Of a DNA stretch of 64,000 bases, positions 3,341 to 63,270 are shown piece after piece. The notes under the pieces are model-generated. The model was not told the origin of the DNA. It saw only the letters and a list, made by a program, of their open reading frames with translations, and did no database searches. Source of the stretch: Cyanidioschyzon merolae (taxonomy: Eukaryota). Both the position numbers and the translations under genes were made by a program. The stretch's first letter is position 1, and every line of letters begins with the position of its first letter. Where the stretch lies: NCBI GenBank assembly GCA_000091205.1, contig AP006487.2. One strand, given 5' to 3'.

Positions 3341-3379
<39 letters not shown>

Positions 3380-3595
3380 ATCATCATCGTCGTCATTGTC
3401 ATGAAGAATGCGATTGGGGGTCGCATGGCCAACTGCGTCCCAGGGGTCGCCCGCTGAGCCATACTCGCGCCCCGAGTCATTCTCCAGGAGCAGCAAAAGC
3501 GCCTCCTCGGCGACGTCCCGGTGCGCAGAAGTCATACAACGCGCCAGTCGGCGAAACACCAGAGGCACCAGCGATGCATCGCGGGAATCGGGTGC

Positions 3596-3632
<37 letters not shown>

Positions 3633-11550: not shown

Positions 11551-11999
11551 GCAGCCTTGCGCGCGCTGCACGCACGCGCGGTACCAGGCATCGAATCATC
11601 GCGAGATCGCGCTGCACGCGCACGCACCTACGTGTCCAGCAGTCGAGCGTAGAGCGCCTCGATCACGCGCATCGCGGAGGCCTCTGGATGTAGCCGCTGA
11701 TCGAGATTGCGCCGCGCGCGCGGGCGGCGTCGACAACCTCATACCGGCACGCCATCGTAGAAAAGCCCCAAAAGCCACCATCGTCGTCGTCGCCGTCGTC
11801 GGTGGTATCGAGGCTGCGCGTGGGTGTATCTGGGGTCTATCCTCGTTGTTTGGGTCTATACAAACACACACACACACGGGCAAGTCGTTTGCCGTTTAAC
11901 AGTTGCGGGCTCTACAGTCTGTGAAGGGAAAACGCTTGTATAACTTTTGGGTTGTGCATATGGGCGCTTTGTGTTGAATTCAACAAAGTGCTCACGTCA

Positions 12000-25475: not shown

Positions 25476-26435
25476 GTGGAACACAATTCAGGTGAAAGAC
25501 CAGAAACGTCGACAAGTGCGCGACGCAGCAGCAGCGGCAGCCGCATTCTTGTTGAGGTTGTCGTTCTACCGCTGCGACTGCGCTCGCGTGCTGTACAACA
25601 ACTCGCTGCTGCTCATTTCGGCTTGTGTCCAGGACCAAGCATGGCATCTGGAGCGAGTGCGGAACATCTGTGTGGTTTTCTGGGGCTACCCGGGGTTGCG
25701 TTTCTCCGCAGAGGAACAGTCGTGCGTGCGGCAGAGCGGAGGCAGTTGGCGTCTCCGGGAGTCCGGCGAAGAGCACCCGCGTCGCGCAGACGAGAACGCA
25801 GCACACGGACGCTGGTTCAGGAGTTTTCGCGACGTGGTCAGGATGCCATTGACTCGCGTGTACCGGAGCTTGTGGAGGAAGTCGACCCTGGCATCGTGCC
25901 AGGCGTCAGTCTGCGCATCGTTCGTTACCCGCACCGCGTCCTCCGGGCACCGAACGAACCGGTTACCGTTTTCGACGACGCTTTGCTGAAACTCGTACGT
26001 GACATGTTCAAGGTTATGTATGCAAGCAGGGGCGTTGGACTTGCAGCTCCGCAAGTTGGTATCAACAAACGGGTGATGGTCTTTAACCCAAAAGGTGACC
26101 CCCGGGCGTGGCTGAGCGAGGTTGCGCTCGTGAACCCGCGAATCATTGAGCGAAGCGAGGCCACGGAGGAGGGTATGGAAGGCTGTCTCAGTTTCCCAGG
26201 GGTATCGGGCGATATCGAGCGCTCGCTCATGATCAAGGTGGAGGCGATGAAACCGAACGGGAAACGCTTTCAGGTCAAGTATCAGGGTTGGACGGCCCGA
26301 ATTTTCCAGCACGAATACGACCATCTGGATGGCGTGCTCTTCATTGATCGGATGAAACCGGCGGTGCGGGAGCAGAACCGCGGGGCGCTCGAGAACCTCA
26401 TGCGGCAAGTGCCCGAGTCGGAGCGTGCCCTCTGA
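25476..26435 (+). CDS. PDF: Peptide deformylase (organelle-type) with a ~130-180 aa N-terminal extension that looks like a presequence
   Basis: All three PDF motifs are present: GVGLAAPQVG (motif I), EGCLSFPG (motif II) and QHEYDHLDG (motif III). The core starts around IVRYPHRVLRAPNEPV. The track start is a GTG; the in-frame ATG MASGASAEHL lies at ~25641. The N-terminal region is Arg/Ser/Ala-rich, consistent with a transit peptide. Confidence 0.8.
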   Translation: MEHNSGERPETSTSARRSSSGSRILVEVVVLPLRLRSRAVQQLAAAHFGLCPGPSMASGASAEHLCGFLGLPGVAFLRRGTVVRAAERRQLASPGVRRRAPASRRRERSTRTLVQEFSRRGQDAIDSRVPELVEEVDPGIVPGVSLRIVRYPHRVLRAPNEPVTVFDDALLKLVRDMFKVMYASRGVGLAAPQVGINKRVMVFNPKGDPRAWLSEVALVNPRIIERSEATEEGMEGCLSFPGVSGDIERSLMIKVEAMKPNGKRFQVKYQGWTARIFQHEYDHLDGVLFIDRMKPAVREQNRGALENLMRQVPESERAL

Positions 26436-26918
26436 ACAACACACAGGCGACCAGGCACAACCCGGGGGATGCAAAGCGCATGCTCCACAACCGGTATCAC
26501 TTGGAGGTAGCGGGAACCAGCGCTGCAGCACATGCTCTAGCGGCATCAAGTGGACGTCGAGCTACGCGCGTGGAATCGGTCTTGAAGCGGTGTCTTCCTG
26601 TCCATGGAAGATCCCGTGCGAGGCTTTGAGTGTATGCGCTGACGACGTTGCAGGGTTGCGCTGCTGGGGCCCTGGCACCCGCTTTCGACACCCCGGATGC
26701 CAACAGTGACGTTTTGCATCGTCGCGCTTGATCAACAAGCTCCAGAAGACAAAAGCATCACCGGACCTTCAAGGCTGCTTGCAGTCGAGCGGTGGCTGAG
26801 TGCCTGCGTGTCTGCAATGTCCCAGTCGCGTGGTGCTCGTCGGATTCCCAGAACCCAGGAACGACTCATGCTGATGAGGTAATCGACGTCACCGAGCGCA
26901 CCCGTTCGCTCCGAAGCC

Positions 26919-28625
26919 TCAAATGCTGTGCAGTGATGACCCTGGCGTCGACTGCTCGAGTTGAACCTTCACGAGCTCCTCAAGAAGCACGGCTAGACAA
27001 ATCGTCACCATGGGTGAGGATGCAGGCGCATTCGCCCTTTGTAGTGCCGCTTTTGCCAGTTTTAAAAAGCATCCCGATGGAAGGCTTGGCGCAGAGGTCT
27101 GAATCGGATTCCACGCACTGATTTGCTCAGCGGGTAACGGTGCGTTCGGCAACGAACAGCCGTGTAAAGTGAGCACGTCTGACCCTGGCAGGCCGACTGC
27201 ACGGGACCATCGCGCAGCTCGTTGTATAAAGGCGGCGAGGCTGGTGCCCATGCGGACCTGTCGCTGAAACCCCAGCGGGGCCCCGTAAATCCAGGAGCCG
27301 CGAATGGACCCGTAGATACCGCAACAAGCCAGGATACAGTCTCCGTGCGACGGCAGCACGCCTAGCTTGACGAGTGTGCTTACCGATGCCCCATAGAGCG
27401 TGCGTTTGCGCGGCACCTGGGTTACAGGCCGGCACATCGGATTCGCCCGTATTGGCCTGGAGTGCAGCAGGGGCCACATGGACGCCGGCACACCCAGTCC
27501 GTCCAGCCTCAGTGCTGCGGCCACGAACGGCACTAGTTCGTCTCGGGGTACGGGCGTTCGGGCGCTTTGGTTGCAGCTGAACCAGCGAACGAGTCCATGA
27601 GCCAGAAACGCCTGCAGCGAAGGCCACGGGTATTGCGGTACTGGCGAGCATTCCGCAGCATCGCCGGCAGGCAGCGGGACGACGATGCCGCCCTCTCGAA
27701 CGATACCTACCACGTCCGGGGACGTTCCATGAGCCAAGTCGCCCGAGGCGGTTTCTGGTCCGAAGCAGATCCACGTCCCTGGTCCAAGGTAACCTAGTTC
27801 CCAGAGGTATGCTGGAAACCATTCCAGCTGACGCCATGCTTCGACGCTTTGATCGATTCGTGCCCCGCCTTGTGCGCTTAGCTGATACAGGTATTCGCGG
27901 TCGCTTGCCTTGGCGGCGTCCATACCCACACCGTAAAAGTAGAATGCACCAAGAAGCGTTACCAGTGATATACCGTAGGGATCCAAGGTTTCGAGTGGAG
28001 GCTCTGGTTCGCAGGTCGCGGAGTCTGGCGGTGCAGCGCTCGTCCATAACTGTGCTTCACAAAGCGCTCGCCATTCCGCTGCAGTACAGCGGGTACAGAA
28101 GAAAGTCTTCGACACAGCGGGTCCAGGAGATGCGCTTGTGTTAGCTGCTGTCGCTGTTACCCCCTCAACGACGCACGAGGCGTCATCCCGCAGCGTCGGA
28201 TAACGAGGCAGGTGTACGCGGAGACGATCACGTACCTGTCGCAGGGAGCGCGTTCCAACGTACGCTGCAACTCGCTGAACATCAACAAGGCCATCAGCTC
28301 TCCGAAACAACTCGCACGCCTCTGCCAAGCGAGTAAGTTCAACTGAACTCCAGTGTCGCCGCCGTTGTCGTCGTCGCGTGCTCCCCAAGTAGTTCGTGGT
28401 GGACGCGTCTCGCTCTGCCGGTGTCGGTGCTGGTGCGGAACGTTGCTCACGCAACCAACGAAGGTATACCTGTCGTTTGGTCCGCGTACCAACATGGGCA
28501 ACGACCTCTGCCCAGTTGATGCGCTCACTGGACTCTTGTTTCGCGAGCGCTTCTCGAAACCGAGCGAGTTCCGCAACGCTCCAGCGACTCGACGCTGCTC
28601 CGAAACGAGGCGCTGCGTCTGGCAT
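26919..28625 (-). CDS. Myb/SANT-domain protein (two N-terminal SANT-like repeats) with a large uncharacterised C-terminal domain
   Basis: The ATG at 28625 was verified. The SANT-like repeats are WSVAELARFREALAK...INWAEVVAHVGTRTKRQVYLRW and WSSVELTRLAEACELF...VQRVAAYVGTRSLRQVRDRL. I do not recognise the remaining ~400 aa. Confidence 0.5.
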   Translation of the reverse strand: MPDAAPRFGAASSRWSVAELARFREALAKQESSERINWAEVVAHVGTRTKRQVYLRWLREQRSAPAPTPAERDASTTNYLGSTRRRQRRRHWSSVELTRLAEACELFRRADGLVDVQRVAAYVGTRSLRQVRDRLRVHLPRYPTLRDDASCVVEGVTATAANTSASPGPAVSKTFFCTRCTAAEWRALCEAQLWTSAAPPDSATCEPEPPLETLDPYGISLVTLLGAFYFYGVGMDAAKASDREYLYQLSAQGGARIDQSVEAWRQLEWFPAYLWELGYLGPGTWICFGPETASGDLAHGTSPDVVGIVREGGIVVPLPAGDAAECSPVPQYPWPSLQAFLAHGLVRWFSCNQSARTPVPRDELVPFVAAALRLDGLGVPASMWPLLHSRPIRANPMCRPVTQVPRKRTLYGASVSTLVKLGVLPSHGDCILACCGIYGSIRGSWIYGAPLGFQRQVRMGTSLAAFIQRAARWSRAVGLPGSDVLTLHGCSLPNAPLPAEQISAWNPIQTSAPSLPSGCFLKLAKAALQRANAPASSPMVTICLAVLLEELVKVQLEQSTPGSSLHSI

Positions 28626-30885
28626 GAAGACTACGGTTGAGACTCGGTGCTCGATGTCCGATAGCCGCGTGATGAGATATCGTTCGCAACTGCAGCTTCG
28701 AAGGCGGTTTCTTGATCATACTGGCAAGCGAACGAGCGCCTGTATCGACGGCAACTCCAACCTTGCCATCAAGGCGGATGCAGCGCTCAGCGCAGCGGCT
28801 CGAGGCTCTGCTGCAGCCGCTCCGCTCCCGCTGGTATGCAGCCACCCGAAACAACGCTTACTGTTTCCGGAAAAGTTATTTGTTTTCGGATATTGAGAAA
28901 CCAGTGGCAGTATTCAAGGGTTGCAGGTCCAGATGAACGCTGGTTCACAGGCACGCGACTGGACGTTCCGAGTTTGCACAGGAGGCTCGAGGCGGAACCA
29001 GCGAAGCGCCAGTGCTGTTTACAGGCCTCGTGAGCGTTCTGCTGGCGAATGCGTAGAATAAGCGAGCCAAATTCGTCTAATCGGCCTCAGGGTGTTTGGT
29101 TCGTTGAAAGGTATTCTGAAACTAGAGTCAAGTTTGCATGTTGAAAAGACGCCGCGCCCTATGCGGCGTCAAACGTGCGCATGCACCTTGCAGTGCAGGA
29201 GATTCGAAAGAATGCATAGCCCAGGCATGTGTTTATAATGTTGTGCATATGTTTTTGTATCTGAACGTATATGTGCGGCTTTGTGTCGACCGGTCTCGTG
29301 ACCGGCTAGTCTAACAAGCGAGCTCAGGCAAGGACCGGTCGTTTTGGAAAACGGCAGCATTTGGAACGCGACACACATCCGTGGTAGACCAGAACGGAGC
29401 AGTGCGCTCTGTACCTGCTTTGTTGATGTTCGCATCTGAACTTGTTTTTGAGATGTACAGACCCGATACTAGAAGAGCAACCATAAGGGCATGCGGATTC
29501 ATACGTCGATTCAGGATTCTCGGTCGTTATTGTTTTTCGATGTAGCGCCTTGGAAGCATTGTCGCTGCAAGGCGTGACACCACCGGAATGAAGAGGACTC
29601 GCGACGCAGTCGAACATGGGAACGCAAGAAAGCATCGATATCCGTATGCAATGCAGACGTGCAAGCATCCACGATTCTTCTTTGCTTGTGTATAGCAGGT
29701 TCAAATCACATATTCTTCACGTTCTCGATCTTTATGTTTAAAGGCAACCATCGTACGCAGCGATTCGCGCTGCTGAACTGACGAGGAGAAAAACTCGACG
29801 TTGACCGTTGGCGAATTTTTCGCAAGCTCATGCGAAAAGATCACTGAACATACCATGTCCAGTAATAATTTCGGTTTGATAGATGATTGCTCCTCCCGTC
29901 GTGGCCATCGACGAATCTGGATTCGAAACCTGCATGATACCTCTTTGGGGATCTGTGCTCAGTGGCTGACGTCGCTTCTGTTTGCACGGGACAGGCGCTT
30001 GGACTCCGGTCTGAGTTTTTTTTGTATCTCTCGCTCGCAATGGTGCAAGCGTAGCCGGGTCGGAATGCCTCGACGTGTTGTCCAGTCTGAATTCTCCTTC
30101 TGGTTCGTGTTTCATCAAGGACAAGATCGCTTTCCACAAAATATCTTATTGGATGCAACAGTACGTTCTTGCGTGTCCAGCAGACAGAACAGTCGCAGAA
30201 CGAATCGCCCAGAGGAAGGCCGCGACCACAGTGTACGGCACCAGGCGTCGAAACGGAGGGGGGCATCGAGTGGAGCGCCCCTGTGTCCTTCAAGGGCGTA
30301 CACCTTGCGATGAAGCAAGTTTGACGCGACACGAGGCAGCGTCTGGAGGAGGCTGGATGGTGGTGCGCCTATGGAAGCACCCGACGGCACCCAAGTGTCG
30401 CCGCTGGAGATGGTGCACTGCTGCTGCTGCTGCTGCATACAAAGAAGATCAAAATGGCGAGCGAAATGTAGATGACGACTTCGGCCTCTGCATGAACGGC
30501 ATAGATAGATAAGTGCCCGAAACTTCACGTCCGAACTCGAACGCAGCTGTTGACAGCCTTCGACTATCAGGAGGGAAACTGGATGAAAGGACGGAGCAGC
30601 GTATTTACCACCGGATATAAGAAAGAGACGAGAAGGAAGCAGTCAAACAAAAATCCCGCAAAGGCCGGTACGAATGACACTGGCAGGGGACGCAAACTTT
30701 TGCATCCAAGCGCTAGCTACCAATGCCTGCCGGTTCCGCTTCATGCTAACATGAATTTCATCAGCGGTCGCGTATACTGGGCCCGATCTATCCGGGTCCG
30801 CGTTCAGGAGCCTTGCAGTGCAGGGCGCTTCTCGCGATACCGCACCAGGTGCTTCAGCGTTTCGCAGTGCGCCACCTTAAAACCG

Positions 30886-32238
30886 CTACGTCGTTCGAAA
30901 CCCGAAACTACTCACTGCGCGCTGTTGCTGGTGTCGTTCGAGATGCTCCCTAATTCGGTACAGGGGACGTCGGCCAGCTGGCGCCGCCTCTTGCGCGTAC
31001 CACGCTCGCACGGCTATCTCGGCGACAATACCAAGACCAAGAAAAATGAGTGCAGTCAGGGTCACGGAGGCAGAGAGCACAAGCAATGCTGTACGGCTAA
31101 CGAGTCGACCCAAGGGGTTTCTGCTCAAGTTGGACACGCCGGCAATCATTCCCAGCAGCGGCATGATCAGGGCGTTGGGTAGGAGGGCCAGCACCACAGC
31201 GATTGCTCCCAGCACGAGGGCAATCGTCCCGAACCAGTGCATAGGCCGTGTCGCCTGCCGAGTAAGGTAATGGAGCAGCACCAGATCGCAAATGACGCGA
31301 AACGTGCGACCAAGGCCGTACTTGCTGGCACCGTAACGTCGCGGTCGATGACGAACCTCCATCTGACCGAGGCGAGCACCTTCGATTTTGGCTAAAACTG
31401 GTATAAATCGATGCATTTGGCCGAATAGTTGGATATCGCTCAGAATGTCGGCGCGGTAGGCCTTGAGTGAGCATCCTAGATCGTTCACTTCGTGGACTCC
31501 GGTTGCCGTGCGAATGAGCGCATTCGCCACCTGGCTGAGCCACGTGCGTATCGGGTCGTCGCGTCGCTGCCGACGCCATCCGCTCACGACATCGAGCGAT
31601 GCTTGCTTCAGCTTTTCCAGAAGAGGAAAGATATCTTGCGGCTCCTGCTGCAAGTCACCGTCCATGGTGACAACAACTTCGCCCTGGGCTGCATCAAATC
31701 CAGCTGCCAGCGCTGCTGTCTGTCCATAGTTTCGACGGAAAAAGACCCCCACGAGGTGCGAGGGCAGCAACAACCTCTCGCCAGCTGGGGCGTTGTACTC
31801 GTCACGCAGTATGTTACGTAGCAGTGCCGTCGTGCCGTCGGTAGAGCCATCGTCGACAAGCACAACCTCAACCTGCCCACGGTACTGCTCTGGTGCGCTC
31901 TCCGTCTCCAGTGCCTCGTAGAGCGCACGCAGCAAAGCAACCAGAGCCTCAGACTCGTTGTAGAGCGGGATCACAACAGAAACGGGGTATTTGTACATAC
32001 GCTGGTCTCGAAGAGGACGAAACGGTACCCGAGGAACAGACGCGGAGCCTTTGTCTTGGGATCGGAGCCAAGGTTTGCCCAGTTGTTCGCGAGCGCTAGG
32101 TGCTTCCTCGTGTCGCGCTCGTACAGACAACGATCGACTCGAAAAGCCAAGCTCCCTAGGAGAACACCGATACCTGCACGCCTGCAACCTACGCTGATCG
32201 CATGGCAGCTTGTAATAGACAATGAAACCCGGACGCAT
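30886..32238 (-). CDS. GT2-family polyprenyl-phosphate glycosyltransferase (DPM1/GtrB/ArnC-like) with two C-terminal TM helices and an N-terminal extension
   Basis: GT2 motifs: VSVVIPLYNESE, VVLVDDGSTDGT and TMDGDLQQEPQDI, followed by the hydrophobic helices WFGTIALVLGAIAVVLALL and ALLVLSASVTLTALIFLGLGIVAEIAV. The track start at 32262 is a TTG; the first ATG is at 32238 (MRPGFIV...), verified. Confidence 0.7.
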   Translation of the reverse strand: MRPGFIVYYKLPCDQRRLQACRYRCSPRELGFSSRSLSVRARHEEAPSAREQLGKPWLRSQDKGSASVPRVPFRPLRDQRMYKYPVSVVIPLYNESEALVALLRALYEALETESAPEQYRGQVEVVLVDDGSTDGTTALLRNILRDEYNAPAGERLLLPSHLVGVFFRRNYGQTAALAAGFDAAQGEVVVTMDGDLQQEPQDIFPLLEKLKQASLDVVSGWRRQRRDDPIRTWLSQVANALIRTATGVHEVNDLGCSLKAYRADILSDIQLFGQMHRFIPVLAKIEGARLGQMEVRHRPRRYGASKYGLGRTFRVICDLVLLHYLTRQATRPMHWFGTIALVLGAIAVVLALLPNALIMPLLGMIAGVSNLSRNPLGRLVSRTALLVLSASVTLTALIFLGLGIVAEIAVRAWYAQEAAPAGRRPLYRIREHLERHQQQRAVSSFGFRTT

Positions 32239-33384
32239 GCCTACAGGTGCAGCAGTGCTCAAGTCGCTGCCTCGAAGGACGCGTCCCTGCTACCCGGTGA
32301 GGCGCCCGACGGGCGGGCAGCGTTGGCGGCGCGCGCGAGACTCGACGATTGCCGCATTTGAGGCGTGGTGTACGTGCGTGCTGCGACGCTCGCTCGCCAC
32401 GTTGACGGGTACATCCGGCAACGTCGCGAGCTTCTCCAGGAGGCTCGGTACCCAAAGGTTGGTAGCGTCAGAACCTTGTCCTAGATGGGCAGCCTGGTCT
32501 GCAGTTGGCGGACCACAGACGTATTTTGAGGGGAGCAGTGGTACCTCTCCTGGTTGCTAACAGCAAGCGAAGTTGCACGGGGTCCCGGGTGCTCTCTTTC
32601 CCCTCTTACACCACACAAACCGCATCCAGTGAGAAAGGTACGAGATGCCAATGTACTATACGTAGAGGCAAGTGCAGCAAGATGGCGGCCTGTTCGCTGG
32701 TTGTCGGCAGCAGGCATGCATTTGGAAGATTCTCGCAAGGTTCATCGGCGCTGGACGTAAACAATATGCGCACAGCGGAGCATTCGTGCATAAAGCTCAG
32801 GTGCATCCCGACGCATGCGCACAGTACACATAAACGCGTGATGGAGCTTAACCGAGACCGTGGCTCGTCTCCGGAAAGCACCTTTGCTCTCGTCCAGCGC
32901 GGATGCGAAGGTACCGATCTCTGTCTCCAAAACGCAAACCTCGCGCTCCATTGGATGTTGTTCTTTTCGGGTTGCCGACCCGTTCTGGCTGACTTGCCTC
33001 TCTTCAGTCGAAGCGGGTACGTTGCTCGTTTGCATTCAACGCTCGATGTGCACTGATGTAATGCGTGGCGGTTGCGTTGAGGTTCAGGCAACGCTGCACA
33101 TCGCCGGAATCTGCCGTGACAAACGTGCATGCGAATAGACAGCATATTTCTGATTTCGAGTAGACGCTGATCGGGGTTTACGTGCGCTGCTTGCTAGGCC
33201 CGCATTTCTCCGCTTTTCGGCACTAGGGTTTTACAGAGTAAAACTGCTACGCTAGCGCGTGCAGGAGCACGCACCACACACCTCAGGTTGCGAGCTCGTC
33301 AATTGTCGAGCTCCAGCGCCCTGCATGGGCGTCCCTGTGCCGTGTGCATCGGCAAGCAATGGACCTGCGTAGCGCCCCGCGCAA

Positions 33385-34431
33385 CTAAGCCCCGTGTTCG
33401 TCCATAGACACGTGTGCATCGATATGGAACAGCCAGCGCGTTTCCGTCGGCTGCATGCATGGCGATCGATGGATGGCGGCGGCGGCGGCACTGGCATCGC
33501 CATCTGCACGGATCCATCCAGTGCCTTTCAAAAGCACAGCATGCCACGGTACAAGTCGCTCAACAGGGGCGTCTGGGAGCGAATCCCGCAGCAACCAACG
33601 ACCAGATGACGGGTCCCAGATGTACTGGGGCACACTGATCGCCAGCGGCGTCGACACCTGCCGCCTAAAAACAACGTGCTGTGCGTGCTCCTCAGCTGTG
33701 CACGCCGACAGTGTCTGTGTTTGCCACCAGGACTTTCGGATGCGATAGGCACCGCCTACGCTTCGTGCTGCTTCGAAACGCTCCCGCCACACGAACGTCT
33801 CCCTTGCAATTTCCGTTCCAGGGCCTTGTAGCGTACAGAGCAGGCGCAGGGGCACAGAATCAACATGAAATCTCGGGCAAGGAGTGGAGTCCAAGAAACT
33901 CAAACGCAGGTCCACCGCACGTAGCGGGGATCTCGCATGTTGCCCAATTCGGTTCACGTTCTGTTCGAAGGCGAGGCAGAAGAGCTCGATCATTTCCAGA
34001 AGCGGTTCATAAAAAGTTTCCATGCCGTTCACCGAAAGCCCCATTTCCAGGAATAGGTGCCGCAACGCTGCTCGTTGCTGGTCGATGTCTGCAACCGGTA
34101 CGTGCTGTGCTGTTAGGACGCCGTTCGCTGGTCTGCGTCGAGTTCTCGCCGCCGCCGCCGCCGCCGTCCAGGCTTCTCGTAGGCGAGCGGCGTCAGAGCC
34201 CGGCTTCCACACGCACGCGAGACAGTTTGGTTGCTGAAGGCTTGAGGAAACCTGTGTTTTCACAGTCGTGTGTGCGATTCCGTGCAAAAGTGAGGGCAGC
34301 TCAGCTACCGACTCGTTACTAGTTGCAGCTGAGCAGTTGAACGGTGACCTATTTCTGGCCCGTTTGCGAACTATACCGTATGCTCGCCCGTGTCTTTGGT
34401 TCAAACAGCTCTGCGTTGCTAGAACAAACAT
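33385..34431 (-). CDS. Hypothetical protein with a DUF1826-like (bacterial-type) domain
   Basis: The ATG at 34431 was verified. The motif PCPRFHVDSVPLRLLCTLQGPGTE resembles the RFHxD...RLL.TY.GpGT core I recall for DUF1826. The assignment is from memory and needs an HMM search. Confidence 0.35.
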   Translation of the reverse strand: MFVLATQSCLNQRHGRAYGIVRKRARNRSPFNCSAATSNESVAELPSLLHGIAHTTVKTQVSSSLQQPNCLACVWKPGSDAARLREAWTAAAAAARTRRRPANGVLTAQHVPVADIDQQRAALRHLFLEMGLSVNGMETFYEPLLEMIELFCLAFEQNVNRIGQHARSPLRAVDLRLSFLDSTPCPRFHVDSVPLRLLCTLQGPGTEIARETFVWRERFEAARSVGGAYRIRKSWWQTQTLSACTAEEHAQHVVFRRQVSTPLAISVPQYIWDPSSGRWLLRDSLPDAPVERLVPWHAVLLKGTGWIRADGDASAAAAAIHRSPCMQPTETRWLFHIDAHVSMDEHGA

Positions 34432-36676
34432 AAGTCAACCTTTAACTTGCAACTGGAGTGGTTCCACAACACTGATTCAGCGCCGCTCGAGTTAACAGCT
34501 CGCGACAGTCGCTTGTCGTTGCGGCAACGTGCACTACGAACACGAGTGCTCGTCCTCACAGAGCGTCGTGAAATGGAATCGTTGCGATCCGCGCGGTACA
34601 GGCGTTGATCGCGCAGGATCGATGCGTCGAATCGAGCGGTACCTCCCGTGTCCGATACACATGGAATGCGGAACAGCTGGCTCTCTGTCGTGCGAATTCT
34701 CCCGGACTTCTTTTTTAGCTATAAAGCGTGGACACTCGGATTGCATTTATATTGGGTTACAGATTCATATTTGGTTTTGGGGCTCTTGGTCGGAGTGGGA
34801 GAGTGGTGTCTCTGCCGCCGGTGATCGTTGTGACACAGGAATCTGGATCATACGGGACACATCCTAACAAGGACTAGTGCAATAACCGATATCATTGGTC
34901 AAAGCACAGCTACATACTTACACTCATCTCTTTAAGAGCACGTGTAGTGTCATGGAATCAGGCATGCATCAATTCGCGATCTTTCTGTTTCAAGGAAACT
35001 CGTGAATCTCGCACACCGCGCCACTCGATGGAACAGGGAAACAGCTCGGGTTCGTCGCTTGACGACTTGTTCACGAGCTCATGCTGAAAGACCACTGAGA
35101 CCATCACATAACAAAACCGATTTCGTTCGAAAGCCGAATCCTGTTCTCTTTATTGCCATCGATGGCACTGCATTCGAGTGCAGCATGAAACCTGTAATGG
35201 GATATGCTCCCAGAGGTTCACGTCGCGCATCTGCCATGGAAAATGTTCTTGGATTCGGACTTGAGGCAGGGCAGGAATCCATTCCGGTGGAGAGTGTGTC
35301 ACTGCTTTGCATGAAGGGCGTGTATACGAATCGATATTTTCTCGACTAGTTCTGTAGCTTTGGCTCTCGTCTATATACCTGTTTCATCACGAACATCATC
35401 GCGTTCCACGAATCGTCATGTGCTCCCAAACCAGTAAAGAGCAGGGTGCTGATAGTCCTGCGCGCCCCAACATATTCCCCATGGTTGAACCCGAATCAGT
35501 ACGTGTTCGAGGCCGTGAAGAGCGACTTCACAGAGGCGAACACACATTTCGGTTACTCGGATCGTCCTCGACAAGAACTACTGCACGTCGCTTTTGGTGC
35601 TGCGACTGAGGCCGACGGCATTGGCAGCATTTGTCGACCGAGAATCGTTGAGGTTTGCGGATCTCGACTTGCCGAACATGCATAGAGAAAAGGGTGGCAT
35701 ATAGCATAAAGCATGCATACGTGCGGCTTGTTTATCACCGGGCGTACACAGCGAATGCAAACGAGCTGTGCCAGGGAAATTACAGAATAAGAGGAACAAC
35801 ATTATCTCCGAGCGTTCCGAAAAGAGGTGCGTGTCGCACTTGGAGAACGTCGCCCTACTCGGACGAAACGCCTGTTCGCACGACGCTAATCGATTGAGCA
35901 TCAGGTCGGAGACGAAGTATATTCTCGGACAACACGGAGTTTACGACGACCAGGGACGCTCACCGCTCCGCCGATTGCACGATGAATATCGGCATCGGAG
36001 AAGGCGGCCATCATTCCAGGTTCCGCCGATCACGTGCTGTATTTACCCGTCGGAGACACTGACCAATACGCATGTTCCGCTGTGCACCGAGCAATCGGTG
36101 AACGTCCTCCGTTGGGTCTCTAGCACCGGTTCGTAAGCACCACGAATATCGCACAGCTTCGTAACATACCTGGGCGTGGGCGCCATGTCAGGAGAACGAA
36201 AAACGCTTCAGGACTATCGAGTGCATCTATGCGCACACGCACACGCACCCACAGAGGCCTCCCCGGCTGTTTTTTGACCGACTGGCTGCTATCGTTCCAG
36301 TTTATCCAGGCACGCCTCAAGTATGAGAGGCTGCCCCATAAAAAATATCCCGTCAGCTGGTCGATTGTTGTTTTCAGCAGCGCACACCGTCTGATCTGGA
36401 TGGCGGCGTTGAACTCTCGGTTCGGGAACTCCTTGCATGCAGTGATGCTGGTGAAACTCATCAATGTAAGGATTCCTCGAACTCGTACACTCAGCGTCAT
36501 GAAAGTCTCGTCATCATCATCCTCTTCATCTTCTTCTTCATAGCACTTGCTCGTCTTCGCTCGATAATCGGAGAGAGGAGAATTTTCCGTTTTTCCCCGA
36601 CATCCGGCTGTGACTACGCTTCGAGTTCCCCGAATTCCATGTCCACACCTTTCCCCTGAATGTTTTATCTCTTCAA

Positions 36677-37855
36677 ATGAACGTACTTCAAACACATCTG
36701 CTACAAACCGTGAAAGCACATTTGATAACACGCTCACGTAAGTGGAACACTATTGAGGTAAACGAGGACGACACCGACTCCGGGTGGCGGCAACTTGATG
36801 CGTCGTGCAACCGGACGCACGCCCGGCATGGCGCCAAAACCTACAAACGCCACTGCCTATCTGGTGCGGCGCCTAGGCTTGTTGCCATGGTGGAGTCAGC
36901 GCCCCTGGGGCTGCTTGAGTCTACCGAGGAACTTGAAAACCGTCTGCTACAATCATATGTGTCCCTGATCAAAAATCTCACGCAGCAAAACGCTTCCTCC
37001 AATCCGGAGGACGCTCACGGCGGCAGTGAGAACCCCGCAGGGGCAGCTGCGGCACCAGGTGCGACAGCCGCCGCAGAAGCAGCGGTTGCCCGGCACGAAC
37101 ACCCTGGCGGCAACGAAACTGCAAAGGCAGATGCGCTAACAGATTCTGTCTTTTCGGACCTATGCTACGTACCAGAGGACTTTATGGTGCCGCCACACTG
37201 CATACCCGTGCGAGCTGACGTCCGGTTTGCTGACTGGGACCAGATCGCAGCAGCAGCAAACGGAAACTACGACGTTATTCTGATGGACCCTCCGTGGCAG
37301 CTCGCCACCGCAAACCCAACTAGAGGTGTGGCGCTCGGCTATAACCAACTGAGCGACGAGTCGATCCTGGCTATTCCCTTGGAAAAACTGCAGCGTTGCG
37401 GACTCCTCTTGATATGGGTAATCAACGCCAAGTACCGAGTGGCTTTACAGATGTTCGAACGCTGGGGCTATCGGCTCGTCGACGAAATCGTATGGGTGAA
37501 GCTGACGGTGAATCGGCGCTTGGCGAAAAATCACGGCTTTTATCTACAGCACGCGAAAGAGACGTGCCTGGTCGGTGTGAAAGGGAACGACCTTTCCGCA
37601 TTGAGCACTGCACCGGGCATGCCCCGACCAGATGTGATTCTCAGCGAACGTCGCGGACAGAGCCAGAAACCAGATGAGCTCTATGAATGGATCGAGGCGC
37701 TCGTGCCGAACGGCAAGTACATCGAGATATTCGCCCGGAAGAATAACCTGCGCAACTTTTGGGTCAGCATTGGGAATGAGGTCACTGGCGAGAGTTTCGA
37801 ACAGGCGCTACCGCCTGAACTTTGCAAGCAGCTGCGAGAAGAACTCTCGACGTAA
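36677..37855 (+). CDS. MT-A70 family N6-adenine methyltransferase (DPPW catalytic motif), 392 aa, no CCCH zinc-finger region
   Basis: The ATG at 36677 was verified. Matches: YDVILMDPPWQL, LLIWVINAKYRVALQMFERWGYRLVDEIVWVKLT, LQHAKETCLVGVKG and QSQKPDELYEWIEALVPNGKYIEIFARKNNLRNFWVSIGNEV. These align to the METTL3 methyltransferase domain (DPPW, WGYRRCEDICWIK, KEHCLMGIKG, EKP..IF..IE.F...RRLHLFGRD...GWLTVG). Confidence 0.75.
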   Translation: MNVLQTHLLQTVKAHLITRSRKWNTIEVNEDDTDSGWRQLDASCNRTHARHGAKTYKRHCLSGAAPRLVAMVESAPLGLLESTEELENRLLQSYVSLIKNLTQQNASSNPEDAHGGSENPAGAAAAPGATAAAEAAVARHEHPGGNETAKADALTDSVFSDLCYVPEDFMVPPHCIPVRADVRFADWDQIAAAANGNYDVILMDPPWQLATANPTRGVALGYNQLSDESILAIPLEKLQRCGLLLIWVINAKYRVALQMFERWGYRLVDEIVWVKLTVNRRLAKNHGFYLQHAKETCLVGVKGNDLSALSTAPGMPRPDVILSERRGQSQKPDELYEWIEALVPNGKYIEIFARKNNLRNFWVSIGNEVTGESFEQALPPELCKQLREELST

Positions 37856-38137
37856 AGTCGGTACGCACTCCAGCTTGGAGCCATTCACGGGCTCGCAGCG
37901 GTGATTGCTGGCTTTAAGCGTCGGTCGACGCTGTTCCCCGGTGAACAGGTCGTCGCGCGCACTCGCGCGGCCATATGCATTGCGTTCAGGGTAGGCTGCG
38001 TAACCACAGCACCGATGCAGCGATCCAGGCAGAATCCGGAGATCGACAACAGCGCCTTCAGCAATGCATTGCGCCAGGGCGCGTTGCGCATCGATCCAAT
38101 AGACGCCGTGGGCATGCGCGTCCGTGCATGCATACAC

Positions 38138-38336
38138 GTACTGTACTGTACTGTGCTATACTGTACTGTACTGTACTGTGCTATACTGTACTGTACTGTA
38201 CTGTGCTATACTGTACTGTACTGTACTGTGCTATACTGTACTGTACTGTACTGTGCTATACTGTACTGTACTGTGCTATACTGTACTGTGCTATACTGTA
38301 CTGTGCTATACTGTACTGTACTGTACTGTACTGTAC
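38138..38336. repeat. Pentanucleotide microsatellite (TACTG)n interrupted by TGCTATACTG units, ~200 bp
   Basis: The run gtactgtactgtactgtgctatactgtactg... is visible. It lies in the convergent 3' intergenic region between the MT-A70 and ABCD genes. Confidence 0.85.
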
Positions 38337-38834
38337 ATCCCAGACTCATGCCCCCGAAGCTCAAACCTTACTATATCCGATCGGGCACCTGCCTGGTCTG
38401 CGCAAAAGCGGTACGCATCAGGTGCGGCTCCTGCAACCTCTTTTTTCGTTGGACACGGCCTGCCGCACGCTGCTGCTGCTGCTGCTGCCGCCTGACGTCC
38501 TGAGTGATCCGCGGCAGCGCGCCGGCTCACGACGTCGACGCACTGACCATTCCGATCCCAACTGATCCCAAAGGAAAGTATCTCGGGACGCTGTACGGCA
38601 TATGATCGCCATATCAAGGACCGGATGGGTGCATCGCTTGATAACAGTACCCATCTGTCGTCGTTGCGGATAGAATCGGCATCTGGGGCTGCTTTGTAAG
38701 CGGAACCGCGACACGGATCACGGTACGCGCGCTGTGCGCGAACATTCTCTGCTAGAGCATTCGCGTGATTTCCTCCCAGATCAGGCAGCGAGAAGCGGTA
38801 GCTCCCTGCTGAAGCCGCAAGTCCACTTTCTTGT

Positions 38835-41189
38835 CTATTCGAAGAGCGCGGGCTCTGTCCAGGTCATCGATTTCGCGCTTGTGCTCTCGATGTCAAGCAA
38901 TTCCCAGTCACATACGGGTTCAGGATCTGGCGAGGGATGATGGCGGTCATGTCGTGAGCGCGGGCGCAGGCGCAGCATTCTGGTGTGATACTGGAGCAAT
39001 GAGGGTCGGTGCCCCACCGAGACGACAGCTGCACCGAGTTGTCGGATTGCTGCGTACACCCGCGCCTCGGAGGCGATATCAAGCGCCGATGTGAACTCGT
39101 CACCAATCACTAAATCCGCACCATTAAGCAAGAGTCTGGCGACGCCCAAGCGTTGCTGCTCCCCCAACGAGAGAACCTCTGACCAGTTTCGCACGGCGCG
39201 AAGACCCTCGGGAAAGCGCTGCGCCAGTTCACTGAGACCCACGGCTTCGAGCACCTGCCAGAGGCGCTCTGCGAGCGGGCTCGTTCGGGAGTCACGTGCG
39301 AGTTCCGTTCCAGCGCTGGAACGTCCATTGAACGTAACCGTTTTCAGCGCGATAGAACGCAGCTCGTCTTGTTGCGCGACGGGCGGTGTCTGTGGATAAT
39401 ACAGGTTCTCGAGTAGTGAACCTAGCGTGCAGTACGGCTTCTGCGGCAGGAAGAAGGTCGATTCGCGGGCCGAGCGTCGCACTTGGCCTTGGCCTCGTCG
39501 CCAGAGACCGGCGATAGCGCGAAGCAGAGACGACTTGCCAACCCCCGATGGTCCCGTCACCAGGAGGCGCTCCCCGCGGCGAAGCTGAAACGACAGGTCG
39601 GCAAACAGGACCCGTTCGGTGAACAGCGACGTGCCCTCTTTGGCTGTATCGACGGCGCTGCGGTCGCGCGGTACACACAGGGTCAGTTTGTCGACCTGCA
39701 ACGGATACGGATCCGTCGCGCTCACAAAGTTCATCCGAATCCAGCGTTCAGCATTCTCTGGCTTATTCAAAGAGACGGCAGCGTCCAGCATTTCCGCAAA
39801 CTCACCGAGTCGATCGACACCGGCACTGAAAGCAGTCAGTGCCTCAAAGCGGGTTACAAATAGGGATAAGTCGCTCAAAATATGATTGAAAGCAGAGTAG
39901 GACTGGTTAATGACTCCAAGTTCGATCCTGCCGGCAAAATAAAGAGGTGCAACCACAAAACCCGGCAGGACCTGGATCAAATATCGGTAGCCTGTCGTGA
40001 AAAGCTCCAGATTTCTCTGCCAGACGATCAGTTTTGCCTGATTATCTACCGCTCGTTTGAGAAGCTCTTCACTCTCGTTGCGCTCTCGCTCCTCTCCACG
40101 ATAAAAGGCAATAGACTCGGCATTCTCCCGCACCCGAACGAGTGCATAACGAAAGTCAGCCTCGCGCTGAAGTTGCTGAAAGTTCAACTGCACAAGACGG
40201 CGCCCGATCGCAGCCGTTGCAAAAGTACCAAAGCCACTGTACACTATGAGCACTCCGAACAACTGCGGGTAAATGCTGAATAGTATGCTACTGAACGAAG
40301 CCAAATCCAGAATAGAGGTCAGCACTGTAAGGCCAAACGACAATGACGTGGCCGTAAAGGCATTCACATCTTCAGCGAGTCGCTGGTCCGGGTTATCGAC
40401 TTCAACCTGGGGCCTCTCCGGTGCTGCCGCGTGTCCATCCATTTCCTGGTTCTCCAGAAGCAGGCTCTGTTGGGCTTGAATCAGGTAATATGCACTGTTG
40501 GAAAAGTATCGTTCCAGGAGGAAGCGCGTCAGCCAGGCCCGCCAGCGCAGCGCCAGACGGTCGCGGGCGTAGCTGTACCACACAACGACCGGCACGCCGA
40601 CGAGCATCGCACCCAGGAAGAGCAGCATTTCTTGGGTGAACTGCTCGGGGTTACGATTGCTGAGCGCCGTCCAAAAATCACGACCAATAAAGGAAAACGC
40701 CACGGATACACCGGACTGGAGTAGCGTCAGCGCAAACACGGCCGCTAAGTCTGTTTTCGCCGTACGAGACTCGCGCCAGTATGGAGTAGCAAGCTTTCGA
40801 AACAGACCCCAGATTCGTCTCAGTTGTGTACGGCGCTTTGCTGCCGTGTCGTTCTCGCGTCCGTCGCCGTCATCCGCGCCTTGCGGCAAGCTCCTACCGC
40901 CGGCAGACTGCCCAGTGAGCTCCTCTTCAAAGGTGCCGAACCCAGAGAAAAGATTTCGCTGGAGAAAGCGTCTCAACTCTTGCTCAAGCGTACTCGAAGT
41001 TTGTCGCTCAGCGGGCCGTTCATCAGGCGGCGGTGGTTGAGCGTTACGTGCACCCGTGTCCCTGCAGAATACTCTCAGCGCTCGGGTGATGTTGCGTTTT
41101 GAAACTCGGTGGTTCATGGGTGCTCGGTGTCGGTACCCGTTCGACGCTACGCCCGGCACGAAAGCAAAGGGAACCTGTCGCCTATTCAT
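38835..41189 (-). CDS. ABC transporter subfamily D (peroxisomal/plastid-type) half transporter
   Basis: Walker A: [25 protein letters not shown] signature: [15 protein letters not shown]. Walker B: [13 protein letters not shown]. The ABCD-type TMD includes [34 protein letters not shown]. The track start is a GTG at 41213; the first ATG is at 41189, verified. Confidence 0.8.
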
Positions 41190-41673
41190 TACCGATATTT
41201 TCCAACAAACCACAACGCGTGACTCTTAAGTTCAGTCGGAGGCGCGCCCTGTGGGTTTCTCCAACGCCCTGCTCCGCCGGACACCGAGGAACGCGTCCGT
41301 CGCCTGCAAAGTCCACGCAGCGTTTCACCTGACTCGGGGTGTCGCTTTTGAGGCGACGCGGTTACGAGCGCTACGTGTTCCTGGAGTGCACTGCGTCCCA
41401 GTCCAGTTCAGGTTTAATACTGAACGTGCTTCGGTTTGCCGGCAAGGTTATTCGCGCGTCAACAGCAGTTTGCGCGGTTGTTGCTGGGTGAAGGCGCACG
41501 ACGATACGGCTCGTGCGCTTGGCTCGACATGCTTCGCGCCGGTGTCCGCTTCTGTGCAATGAGGGTACCTGCCCCCCATTCCCCCATTTGCCTCCCGCAA
41601 ACATCACCGCTCTCTCCAGGTCTCGTTGAGCGGGCGACAGCTTGTGTCGACACTGCCGGAGAACGCTCACGAA

Positions 41674-42360
41674 ATGAGCACATCGTCACTGAAGAAGAGT
41701 GCTGTACGTGGTTTTAAAGGCGTTCTTGGGCAGGGGTGTCATTTGGCACTTCGCGGCTGTCCGGGCGTGCGCCTGCAGCGAAGGTGCGCGTTCTCGTACC
41801 CGTCACCACGAGAACTCAACCAAGTTGTGCACTTGGCCAAGTTCGTGCGAGAGACGCCTGCTAACTGTGTCAGTTTATGGAGTTTGCACCACAGTACGAA
41901 ACCTACGATGCTCGGTTGCGCCTTATCTGCGACTGAATACGTAGCATTCGCACAGCGAGCAAGCAAGTATCCGTGGTTCGTATTCCCACTGCTTCGCGCT
42001 GCTGACGGCAACTCGTACGTATCCATGCTTTGCCAGGTTCAGGACTCGCGATATGTGCTCTTCACCTACCTGCAGGAGTATCGAGAGCATGCTGCAACAG
42101 CACAGCCACGGGTTGTATTCACCGTTTATCCAGAACTTGTAGCCGAGAAACAGTTGGCACTTGTGCGCCTTGAAAACCTCCATGAAGGCCAGCTAGAAAA
42201 AGCGGATCTCTGGCGACTCTGGTGCCAGTGGCGGCATTTGTATGCGGCGGCGGACACTGCTGGTCTGCAGCTCCTGGCGGACTTCAATGAGCGACCACGA
42301 GTGTTCCGCTTCGAAAAGGCTCTGGAAGTGGCTTGTAAGTTGTACGCCGAGCGCGAGTGA
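41674..42360 (+). CDS. ATP11: Mitochondrial F1-ATPase assembly factor ATP11 (ATPAF1)-like protein
   Basis: ASKYPWFVFPLL...SYVSMLCQVQDSRYVLFTYLQEYREHAATAQPRVVFTVYPELVAEKQLALVRLENL parallels the ATP11 blocks (RAKQYPMFILPLPR...QHVLFTSLAEYKLHGE..RPHLTLTHYTELAEEKGIVLMRGE). The track start at 41626 is a TTG; the first ATG is at 41674 and begins a presequence-like N-terminus. Confidence 0.55.
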   Translation: MSTSSLKKSAVRGFKGVLGQGCHLALRGCPGVRLQRRCAFSYPSPRELNQVVHLAKFVRETPANCVSLWSLHHSTKPTMLGCALSATEYVAFAQRASKYPWFVFPLLRAADGNSYVSMLCQVQDSRYVLFTYLQEYREHAATAQPRVVFTVYPELVAEKQLALVRLENLHEGQLEKADLWRLWCQWRHLYAAADTAGLQLLADFNERPRVFRFEKALEVACKLYAERE

Positions 42361-42575
42361 GGTTTCATGCCAAACACGTCTCGAAGCGATCAGAAATAAG
42401 CCCGAAGCAGCGTCTGCAACACATGCACAGGCCGCCGACTTGAACGGCGTACAGTCCAGAAACGATGACACGCGCTGGACAGCGGCGGCAGTTAGATGCT
42501 CGAAGGACACGTGTCCTTGCGCGACAACGCCAATCATGCGGCCTGCCACTATCGCAACGATCCCCAACGATTCGA

Positions 42576-43559
42576 TCAGAGAGTGACGGAGCTTTGTGGT
42601 AACCACATCTGCGGTGGTACTGCTCCGTAGACCCGGTCCATATTTTCAAAATACGGATGCATCAGCGCCTGACGGGCTGTGATGCGCTTGCTAGGATCAT
42701 AAACCAGGAGACGGCTCAGCAGATCGAGCGCATCCTCGGTCCAGGCGCCGCCAAGTGCCAGTACGCTTTCCCGGATCAGACGAACAGGCCATCGGGGGAA
42801 CGCACTCATGTAGTCCGGCAACTGGCTGACTCCGGGCCAAACTTCCTCACTAGGGGTCCCCAGTGCACGAAAGATTTTGAAAAGCTGGTCTATTTCGGAG
42901 TCCCCCGGGAAAAGCGCCTTCCTGCACATCATCTCCGCAAAGATGCAACCAACCGACCACATGTCTACCGGGGCAGCGTAATTGCGACATCCCAGCAATA
43001 TCTCCGGTGCGCGATACCATAGCGTGATCACTTCCGAGGTCATGTGACGCACTGGAATACCAAACGCTCGGGCGAGGCCAAAGTCCGCAAGCTTCAGGCG
43101 ACCTGCCGCATCGATGAGTAGATTCTGCGGCTTCAGGTCGCGATGGAGAATACGCCGGGCGTGCAAGTACGCAACACCGTTGATCAGCTGGTACAGGAAT
43201 GACTTGGCCTGCTCGGGCCTCATTAGGGTATTCGGCGGTAGTGTATCCATGTAACGTTTCAGATCTTGATCCAGGTGTTCAAAGACGAGGTACAGCTTTG
43301 CGTCACCATGTACAACGTCAAGTAGGCGCACCACGTTCGGTTGGTTGAGTTCCCTCAGGATGGCAATCTCACGTAAAGCCGTACTCGGAACACCCTCTTC
43401 CTCCTGCTCTAGACGAATTTTCTTCAAGGCAACGAGCTGCCCCGTTTGTCGGTCGCGTGCGCGGTATACGACACCATAGGTGCCTTCACCGATGCGCTCC
43501 AGGCGCTGATACCGCAGCGCGATGGCTGCCATGTCCTCGTCATCAGGCATATGACGCAT
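42576..43559 (-). CDS. Cyclin-dependent kinase (cdc2/CDKA-like; PSTALRE variant of PSTAIRE)
   Basis: [96 protein letters not shown]. The track start at 43601 is a GTG; the first in-frame ATG is at 43559, verified. Confidence 0.85.
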
Positions 43560-44093
43560 GGTTCCCTGAAAATCCGCAGATTCGCTATCGTGCCCTGGCA
43601 CGTGTCTCGGGCCGTGGCTCCAGCTGTTCCCTCCCTGGACGCAGCTAGCTCCGCAGGTGCGCAGCTCGAGCAGCTGCTGCGCGTAACGCTCACAGACTCT
43701 TCCCCGAGGATGAGTTCAGCCTGTTGGTCCCAGTCCGTTCCTCGGTCCAAGATGTTCGCTCTTGATAATCTGCCAACAGCTTGTCGACGAGTTCCGTGAA
43801 TGCTCACCCTAAAGCACTGTGCTCGTTTTGCTTCGTGCACCCAGCGGAAGAGCCCGCGACCTCGAATCGTATAGAGCGCGCGGAAGTATTTGTCTTCACA
43901 GAATCCGCGCAGATCGCCAGCATCGCTGCTGGGGCTATCCTGGTGTTTCTCTCATGGTGAAGGATCAATGCATCGGACTGGGTGCGCCCTTGCGAGCGGG
44001 GACCAGGCGAAACATCACTAGTCCACTGAGGTTGCCGCGAGGTCCCAGTGATCCCAGACCACGATACGCATCAGTTGCAGGGGTCTGGTGCGA

Positions 44094-63190: not shown

Positions 63191-63270
63191 CGCTCATAAC
63201 ACGCTTCAGCACTTGCAGTAACGTTCGAGTTACGTTTTCTTCTAGTCGCGTGAGACACTAGACTACCGGA

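Follow-up and report, generated by a model that had tools for sequence, protein, structure and literature searches.

Introduction

ArnC of Salmonella and Escherichia coli (PDB 9bhc, 8vxh, 9hwj) is the undecaprenyl-phosphate 4-deoxy-4-formamido-L-arabinose transferase, and GtrB of Synechocystis PCC 6803 (sll0501; PDB 5ekp/5eke) is an undecaprenyl-phosphate glucose synthase. Both have the architecture of polyisoprenyl-phosphate glycosyltransferases (PI-GTs), in which a GT-A catalytic domain is combined with two juxtamembrane and two transmembrane (TM) helices. DPM1 and ALG5, the dolichyl-phosphate mannose and glucose synthases of the endoplasmic reticulum (ER), belong to the same superfamily and perform the same chemistry on a nucleotide sugar and a polyprenyl-type phosphate, but their membrane topology differs from the layout with two C-terminal TM helices. 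Here we analyze a gene of glycosyltransferase family 2 (GT2) located at positions 30886..32238 on the minus strand of a 64,000-nucleotide stretch of Cyanidioschyzon merolae DNA (assembly GCA_000091205.1, contig AP006487.2). This stretch is further referred to as the window, and all genomic coordinates are given relative to it. The gene is a real, conserved and misannotated member of a well-known enzyme class, found in an unusual host.

Enzyme class and architecture

The coding sequence is complete and intronless and consists of 450 codons and a stop codon. The open frame spans positions 30886..32262 and starts at a TTG codon; the first ATG lies at 32238, with an in-frame stop 19 codons upstream of it. 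The 450-aa product is identical (100% over the full length) to the protein BAM79333.1 (XP_005535619.1, UniProt M1VFM3) of C. merolae 10D.

Glycos_transf_2 (PF00535) was the sole Pfam family matched, covering residues 87–267 with E = 2.5e-25. The top NCBIfam model was ArnC (E = 3e-46), while the dolichyl-phosphate hexose transferase model yielded only E = 2.7e-6. In the sequence search of the PDB, ArnC scored 134 bits, Synechocystis GtrB 52 bits, and the dolichyl-phosphate mannose synthase (DPMS) from Pyrococcus 32 bits. Foldseek comparison of the predicted structure with the PDB produced the same order: full-length ArnC came first (TM-score 0.63–0.66 normalized to the target, about 345 columns), followed by GtrB and then by archaeal DPMS at ranks 22–25. 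An AlphaFold2 model was built from an alignment of 79 sequences (mean predicted local distance difference test score, pLDDT, 80; predicted TM-score 0.75). It contains a disordered segment at residues 1–74 (pLDDT < 50), a GT-A domain at 84–300 with strands and helices at 84–294, helices 229–246 and 311–328 placed as juxtamembrane helices, long helices 332–366 and 375–418, and a C-terminal strand 429–436. Using a 19-residue Kyte–Doolittle mean of at least 1.6 as the threshold for TM segments, we found exactly two hydrophobic segments in the 450-aa protein, with window centers at 341–360 and 388–406, and no N-terminal hydrophobic segment, TM helix or signal-peptide-like stretch. The original prediction, made from the letters of the DNA, had assigned the protein to the ArnC/GtrB layout as opposed to that of DPM1 and ALG5, and these scores and the predicted topology bear it out.

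The features of the enzyme are readily located on the minus strand. The catalytic domain (residues 86–300; 31339..31983), supported by both the Pfam match and the AlphaFold2 model, aligns with residues 9–200 of ArnC. The motifs named in the original prediction, DDGSTDGT and DGDLQ, are indeed present ahead of the two C-terminal TM helices. The former, a nucleotide-binding motif, occupies residues 129–136 (31831..31854), and D129, D130, G131, S132, D134 and G135 in it are invariant in 79 family members. The latter, a DXD metal- and donor-binding motif, occupies residues 193–197 (31648..31662). Mutagenesis of GtrB identified D94, D96, R122, R125 and R200 as essential (Ardiccioni et al., PMC4728340). 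In the HMMER alignment these residues correspond to D193, D195, R222, R225 and R300 of the algal protein, all five being invariant in 79 of 79 algal and cyanobacterial homologues. Three of them align with the arginines through which GtrB binds the lipid phosphate (PMC4728340): R222 and R225 belong to the W-R222-x-x-R225-x-D227 motif, which together with juxtamembrane helix 1 covers residues 222–246 (31501..31575), and R300, aligned with the acceptor-phosphate arginine of GtrB (PMC4728340), opens the R300-x-x-G-x-S-K-Y motif, which together with juxtamembrane helix 2 covers residues 300–328 (31255..31341). The same alignment sets the catalytic D157 of GtrB against S257; within this D-x-G-C loop an invariant Asp, D253, precedes S257 by four residues, an arrangement also seen in ArnC.

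TM helix 1 (residues ~332–366; 31141..31245), modeled by AlphaFold2 as helices 332–352 and 355–366, and TM helix 2 (residues ~375–418; 30985..31116) are predicted by both hydropathy and the model and are separated by a loop insertion specific to cyanidiophytes. They are followed by the RPLYRIRE strand or hairpin (residues 424–436; 30931..30969), which is kept from cyanobacteria to algae and matches the position of the C-terminal beta-hairpin of GtrB (PMC4728340). The protein ends with a Cyanidiophyceae-specific tail, ...SSFGFRTT (30889..30930), recognized in the alignment; its (F/M)GF motif is common to five cyanidiophyte orthologues and absent from cyanobacterial homologues.

Because of the family and PDB matches, the predicted fold, and the invariance of residues essential in GtrB, we assign the protein to the polyisoprenyl-phosphate glycosyltransferases of ArnC/GtrB architecture and regard it as being under purifying selection. 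Its best match in both sequence and fold is ArnC (32% identity to the E. coli protein over 336 aa, 134–150 bits), with which it shares the GT-A domain, the two juxtamembrane helices, the two TM helices, the juxtamembrane motif RxxRxD...R...S..(I/V).N.LI and the motif D-x-G-C-x-L-(K/R)-A-Y-R. Compared to ArnC, the algal protein has an additional leader of ~85 residues, two internal insertions, the insertion between the TM helices, and the FGF tail. It should not be considered an ArnC orthologue, as the score for the ArnC equivalog model NF007986 is 157.8 bits at a cut-off of 529, and no arn genes were found beside the GT2 gene either in the algal locus or in the loci of 80 bacterial relatives. 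The likeness to GtrB includes the PI-GT architecture with the C-terminal beta-hairpin and the essential residues, but the similarity amounts to only 52 bits and 21–23% identity (25% to E. coli GtrB/YfdH by BLASTP). No GtrA- or GtrC-like neighbors were found in the bacterial GT2 loci examined. Judged by its sequence, the algal protein is not GtrB proper, and GtrB belongs to another family of cyanobacterial paralogues.

The orthologous family is a separate core cyanobacterial GT2 family, apparently uncharacterized, with members in a Gloeomargarita metagenome-assembled genome (MAG; P0337, 42% identity), Leptolyngbya (P0043) and Prochlorococcus MIT 9302 (locus L043). Identity is 42–46% along the entire enzyme portion, down to the C-terminal YHESQxRPIYRVRE; the algal leader and tail are lacking. 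In the literature we found no characterized cyanobacterial or plastid orthologue, some of the looking having been poorly targeted.

N-terminal leader

The N-terminal extension (residues 1–85; 31984..32238, minus strand) starts with MRPGF, is basic, rich in Arg, Ser and Pro, predicted to be disordered, and constitutes a putative plastid transit peptide. The first GT2 strand is preceded by 85–86 residues, and the leader itself spans ~75–85 residues with 17.6% Arg, 10.6% Ser, 10.6% Pro and a net charge of +12. An Arg/Ser-rich leader had been foreseen in the original prediction; its character was described correctly, whereas its length, estimated there as ~60 residues, was too short.

In algal and moss orthologues with apparently complete N-termini, 45–156 residues precede the first GT2 strand, compared to 4–24 residues in cyanobacteria. 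Shorter or truncated N-termini were observed in four sequences, those from Klebsormidium, one Closterium model, one Spirogloea model and a cyanidiophyte-like sequence from a Logan assembly. The algal and moss extensions show little conservation, contain many hydroxylated residues and are basic. Within the Cyanidiophyceae, the sole conserved element of the leader is a Phe residue at its start, seen in MRPGFIV, MSTGFVT, MHEGFIT, MHTKFIC and, in Cyanidium, ...RRVGFVAP. The N-terminal GF(I/V) motif (32224–32238 in C. merolae; sequences P0002, P0284, P0004, P0005 and P0122), which in four cyanidiophyte sequences follows closely on Met1, is absent from the cyanobacterial homologues. Protein import into glaucophyte plastids, and probably into those of red algae as well, depends on a Phe at the N-terminus of the transit peptide (PMC2222254). 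Taken together, the leader and the Phe motif make a good circumstantial case for plastid import, and the GT2 protein probably works in the plastid.

Distribution of orthologues

For each database search the best 120 matches were listed. These were mostly filled by cyanobacteria, and absences in distant lineages are provisional. Cyanidiophyte orthologues were found in Cyanidiococcus (71% identity), Cyanidium caldarium (55%), a Logan assembly (50%) and Galdieria phlegrea. The next 115 matches had scores of 257–272 bits and identities of 42–46%, and every named one among those listed was cyanobacterial. When one genome of each prokaryotic species was scanned, the family turned up throughout the cyanobacteria, including Prochlorococcus, Synechococcus, Nostocales, Thermosynechococcus, Pseudanabaenales and Chroococcidiopsidales.

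In the green lineage, a search of representatives and look-ups by name yielded orthologues in Chara braunii, Spirogloea and Pyramimonas. When a streptophyte member served as the query, further orthologues came from Closterium, Physcomitrium patens, Sphagnum, Klebsormidium and Chlorokybus; these were followed, among the matches listed, by cyanobacteria only, Gloeomargarita being one of them. The Physcomitrium gene occupies 2.1 kb for 422 codons and thus contains introns. No orthologues from seed plants, chlorophyceans, non-cyanidiophyte red algae or glaucophytes scored above the cyanobacteria among the matches listed. A profile built from the red and green sequences and searched for further eukaryotic lineages retrieved almost exclusively cyanobacteria among the matches listed; as most of the query sequences themselves were not among these, little weight is placed on this absence.

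Several members of the family have unusual structures. The C. braunii protein GBG78209.1 (P0144, 1284 aa) joins a DUF92 membrane domain, of the VTE6/TMEM19-like prenyl-phosphate kinase family, to the GT2 enzyme. It probably results from merging of two neighboring genes, but it is suggestive that a prenyl-phosphate kinase-like protein is paired here with a polyprenyl-phosphate glycosyltransferase. Among the bacterial variants (P0121 of Ca. Scalindua japonica, 633 aa; P0129 and P0136, ~635 aa) are a polypeptide in which the entire enzyme is duplicated in tandem, and proteins in which a TPR domain of ~300 aa is fused to the N-terminus. The gene downstream of the orthologue in P. patens (L088, 12768–14126) encodes a bacterial-type NAD-dependent DNA ligase with LigA-like domains and a BRCT domain.

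Gene neighborhoods and pathway partners

The bacterial neighborhoods of the family were sampled in 80 loci (L004–L083), 50 of them cyanobacterial. Recurrent neighbors were genes for NlpC/P60, beta-lactamase-like, LPG_synthase_TM-like and MFS proteins, as well as a second GT2. A gene encoding an NlpC/P60+SH3 peptidoglycan endopeptidase lies directly upstream on the same strand in 20 of the 50 cyanobacterial loci (e.g. L002, 7232–8990), and NlpC/P60 genes occur within three genes of GT2 in 31 loci (27 labeled as cyanobacteria and four unlabeled MAGs) from at least five orders. The linkage of GT2 and NlpC/P60 is unusually well conserved for cyanobacteria, and in the literature we found no published explanation for it. 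A beta-lactamase-like gene is found at position −2 in ~21 loci. The flippase-like LPG_synthase_TM gene directly adjoins GT2 in ten loci, mostly cyanobacterial, and is close by in seven non-cyanobacterial ones; its product could plausibly flip the lipid-linked sugar. The linkage with NlpC/P60, beta-lactamase-like and flippase-like genes that is seen for the core cyanobacterial GT2 is not present in the alga.

Genes of GT83, the ArnT family of GT-C enzymes, have been reported from Rhodophyta, represented in the survey by the two species C. merolae and G. sulphuraria, and, within Viridiplantae, only from P. patens, a distribution read by Ulvskov et al. as a result of horizontal gene transfer (HGT) (PMC3797821). 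This distribution resembles that of the ArnC-like GT2, as would be required of a GT-C partner. According to the same survey, red algae lack the GT51 murein polymerase, in contrast to mosses, which have retained the synthesis of murein (PMC3797821); therefore the link to peptidoglycan suggested by the bacterial neighborhoods probably does not hold for C. merolae.

Proposed function and ancestry

The explanation that we prefer as a whole, and hold to be somewhat better supported than the sum of its alternatives, is that of a functional bacterial ArnC/GtrB-type polyprenyl-phosphate glycosyltransferase of bacterial ancestry that would act in the plastid upstream of a GT-C enzyme. The protein, most similar to the core cyanobacterial family, would be directed to the plastid by its N-terminal extension and be embedded in the inner envelope or in the thylakoid membrane, its catalytic domain facing the stroma. 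There, on the face of the membrane equivalent to the cytoplasmic one, it would take a single sugar from a nucleotide-sugar donor and attach it to a polyprenyl monophosphate; the sugar would be bound via the DDG motif, D193-x-D195 and a metal ion, and the lipid phosphate would be held by R222, R225 and R300. The product, polyprenyl-phosphate-sugar, would then be flipped and used across the membrane by a GT-C glycosyltransferase, with the red-algal GT83/ArnT-like proteins as obvious candidates. The acceptor in C. merolae is probably not peptidoglycan, given the reported absence of the GT51 murein polymerase.

A number of observations weigh against this explanation, some of them concerning targeting and the pathway and others the ancestry of the gene. 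The second in-frame ATG (M80) is located at the end of the leader and is a possible alternative start; a protein initiated there would have no leader. Upstream of M80 the frame stays open for 98 codons, for which the probability by chance is ~0.1; this is not improbable alone and therefore too weak as proof that the leader is translated. As for the pathway, the original prediction called for a GT-C partner gene elsewhere in the genome. The reported GT83 genes agree with that, but the C. merolae one is known to us from the survey report only, and in the examined loci no GT-C gene lies next to GT2: none in the 80 bacterial loci and none in those of C. merolae, Cyanidiococcus, Cyanidium and Physcomitrium.

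The ancestry of the gene was addressed with phylogenetic trees. Neighbor-joining (NJ) trees based on Kimura or Poisson-gamma distances with 100 bootstraps did not favor any particular deep placement of the algal clades. As they are uninformative at this depth, we implemented likelihood placement under the Gonnet+Gamma4 model and quartet mapping. Branch lengths were optimized on a tree of 160 taxa, whose reference topology was that of the NJ tree only, and each algal clade was tried on every branch. The green clade was placed on the cyanobacterial stem with a likelihood weight ratio of 0.96; resampling of estimated log-likelihoods (RELL) assigned 0.40 to the stem and 0.21 to positions inside cyanobacteria, and the Gloeomargarita branch was the third-best edge. 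When the algal clades were put in quartets with two random other bacteria and a cyanobacterium, the green sequences paired with the cyanobacterium in 87% of cases, the red ones in 53%, and a random bacterial control in 39%. Based on placement and quartets, cyanobacterial ancestry is reasonably supported for the green-lineage gene and weakly indicated for that of C. merolae.

The main competing explanation accepts the enzyme class and holds that the ancestor of the Cyanidiophyceae acquired the gene by HGT from a non-cyanobacterial bacterium, independently of the green gene. A plastid location is not required by this scenario, as the enzyme could supply a lipid-linked sugar for a cell-surface or endomembrane glycoconjugate. 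The best position of the cyanidiophyte clade indeed lies in the non-cyanobacterial backbone (likelihood weight ratio 0.98, RELL 0.90–0.97), beside a group in which sequences of Proteobacteria, Chlorobi and Bacteroidota are mixed (Sedimenticola, Burkholderiales, Pelodictyon, Bacteroidota). Placement inside crown cyanobacteria is disfavored, with a log-likelihood difference (dlnL) of about −25 and a Kishino–Hasegawa (KH) z of ~2. At the same time, neither the cyanobacterial stem (dlnL −4.2 to −6.0, KH z 0.5–1.05) nor the position sister to the green clade (dlnL −4.6, z 0.57) is rejected. In four-cluster mapping, 74% of quartets grouped the red clade with this mixed group (G8) and the green clade with cyanobacteria; these trees therefore do not support one common endosymbiotic origin of the red and green genes. 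The non-cyanobacterial homologues score only slightly lower than the cyanobacterial ones (42% identity, E = 1e-73, versus 43%, E = 2e-80 for the best cyanobacterium), and the absence of non-cyanidiophyte red algae and glaucophytes among the matches listed also fits HGT.

Moreover, Cyanidiales are known to have received genes by HGT, and the published candidates for such transfer include the "putative undecaprenyl transferases" OG0001087 (present in all Cyanidiales) and OG0001810 (Rossoni et al. 2019, PMC6629376); one of these orthogroups may be the GT2 gene. On the other side are the excess of red–cyanobacterial pairing over the control (53% against 39%) and cyanobacterial signature residues common to the red and green sequences, namely the E188 equivalent and the R in YR(V/I)RE. 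Over all signature columns, red and green sequences carry one to four of eight cyanobacterial and two to five of seven "other bacteria" signatures, which is intermediate and not decisive. The red branches are long, so that attraction to the backbone is to be expected; the reference tree is only an NJ one, and the conserved N-terminal Phe favors plastid import. The red placement could be explained by long branches and a crude reference tree, or by independent bacterial HGT into the cyanidiophyte ancestor, and we consider the latter a serious but clearly less probable alternative. The endosymbiotic origin proposed in the original prediction fares accordingly: the best matches are cyanobacterial and the cyanobacterial stem is not rejected, but the red clade prefers another position and homologues outside cyanobacteria are nearly as close. 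For the C. merolae gene it is a plausible origin. A match list headed by cyanobacteria throughout is no proof of it; slowly evolving cyanobacterial sequences can take the first places even when likelihood placement is ambiguous.

If the database name of BAM79333.1, "probable dolichol-phosphate mannosyltransferase", which appears in both NCBI and UniProt, were right, the protein would be the enzyme that makes dolichol-phosphate mannose (or glucose) in the ER for N-glycosylation and for the GPI pathway. The shared PI-GT superfamily, reflected in the Foldseek ranks of DPMS, agrees with this name. The similarity to DPMS, for which the archaeal Pyrococcus enzyme rather than eukaryotic DPM1 or ALG5 sequences was compared, is remote in relation to that to ArnC, as is the match to the dolichyl-phosphate hexose transferase model. 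The two C-terminal TM helices, the long leader and the lack of an N-terminal anchor fit DPM1 and ALG5 poorly. Furthermore, separate DPM1 and ALG5 orthologues have been reported for C. merolae, and the published GT2 tree additionally contains "algal sequences with unknown activity" (PMC3797821, PMC3958852). Because of the remote similarity and the different topology we do not identify the protein with either ER enzyme; it is very improbable that the name is correct, and most likely it is a similarity-based misannotation.

Nuclear setting and neighboring genes

The original prediction placed the gene in a eukaryotic nuclear genome, and this is corroborated by its neighbors, composition and synteny. 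Other long open reading frames (ORFs) of the window are typically eukaryotic: they encode a PRONE protein, two PP2A-B56 subunits, a MARVEL protein, MT-A70, a protein kinase and an EH-domain protein, and further ones encode an ABCD transporter, an organellar peptide deformylase (PDF) and CCB2/4. The GC content at third codon positions (GC3) is 0.599 in the GT2 gene, compared to 0.601 ± 0.031 in 15 neighboring genes. Eight genes (25476–43601), kinase–ATP11–ABCD–MT-A70–DUF1826–GT2–Myb–PDF, form a collinear block shared by C. merolae, Cyanidiococcus yangmingshanensis and Cyanidium caldarium. Given the same gene order in three cyanidiophyte genera, GT2 was already resident in the nucleus when these genera separated; it is stable and predates the divergence of Cyanidium and Cyanidioschyzon. 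Bacterial contamination or an assembly artefact, which might be suspected from the bacterial type of the sequence and from its recovery by metagenome gene callers from hot-spring contigs, is effectively refuted by synteny and composition, as the gene has native GC3, lies between typical eukaryotic genes on a chromosome-scale record of 528,682 bp, retains its surroundings in two other genera, and shows identity decreasing with evolutionary distance (71%, 55%, 45–48%).

A gene of the DUF1826 family (PF08856; 33385–34431, minus strand) directly adjoins GT2 on the same strand, and this adjacency is kept in Cyanidiococcus and Cyanidium. The family consists mainly of bacterial proteins and has no known function; the copy in the window starts with MFVLAT..., resembling a red-algal transit peptide. 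Joint transfer of DUF1826 and GT2 as a bacterial operon was considered and rejected, as none of the 80 bacterial GT2 loci has DUF1826 nearby.

Two PP2A B56 paralogues are located less than 10 kb apart, at 2975–5746 (minus strand) and 11952–15467 (plus strand), both with a long extension N-terminal to the B56 domain. At 61849–63186 there is a tandem array of 11.7 copies of a 114-bp unit that are 96% identical. It gives rise to long repetitive ORFs on both strands (61773–63212, minus; 61867–63261, plus), whose Pfam matches are weak and spurious.

Discussion

Glycosylation that takes place outside the membrane and draws on lipid-linked sugars is characteristic of bacterial envelopes and the ER. 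To our knowledge, textbooks do not ascribe it to plastids, except for the synthesis of peptidoglycan in some lineages. We tentatively suggest, while regarding it as distinctly less probable than our reading of the C. merolae protein itself, that the plastids of Cyanidiophyceae, prasinophytes, streptophyte algae and mosses may keep glycosylation of the bacterial periplasmic type. Such a pathway would comprise the GT2 enzyme as a polyprenyl-phosphate-sugar synthase at the stromal face, a flippase, and a GT83/ArnT-like GT-C enzyme in the intermembrane space or lumen. In cyanobacteria it would serve the peptidoglycan-associated envelope, as the linkage with NlpC/P60 suggests, and in C. merolae it would glycosylate a lipid or protein of the plastid envelope.

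The current annotation can mislead reconstructions of algal N-glycosylation. C. merolae has neither a cell wall nor murein and allows efficient gene targeting, and therefore the question is directly testable in this alga. The presence of this GT2 in all sampled cyanidiophytes and in non-seed green lineages, together with a similar distribution of GT83, would point to an overlooked relic envelope pathway.

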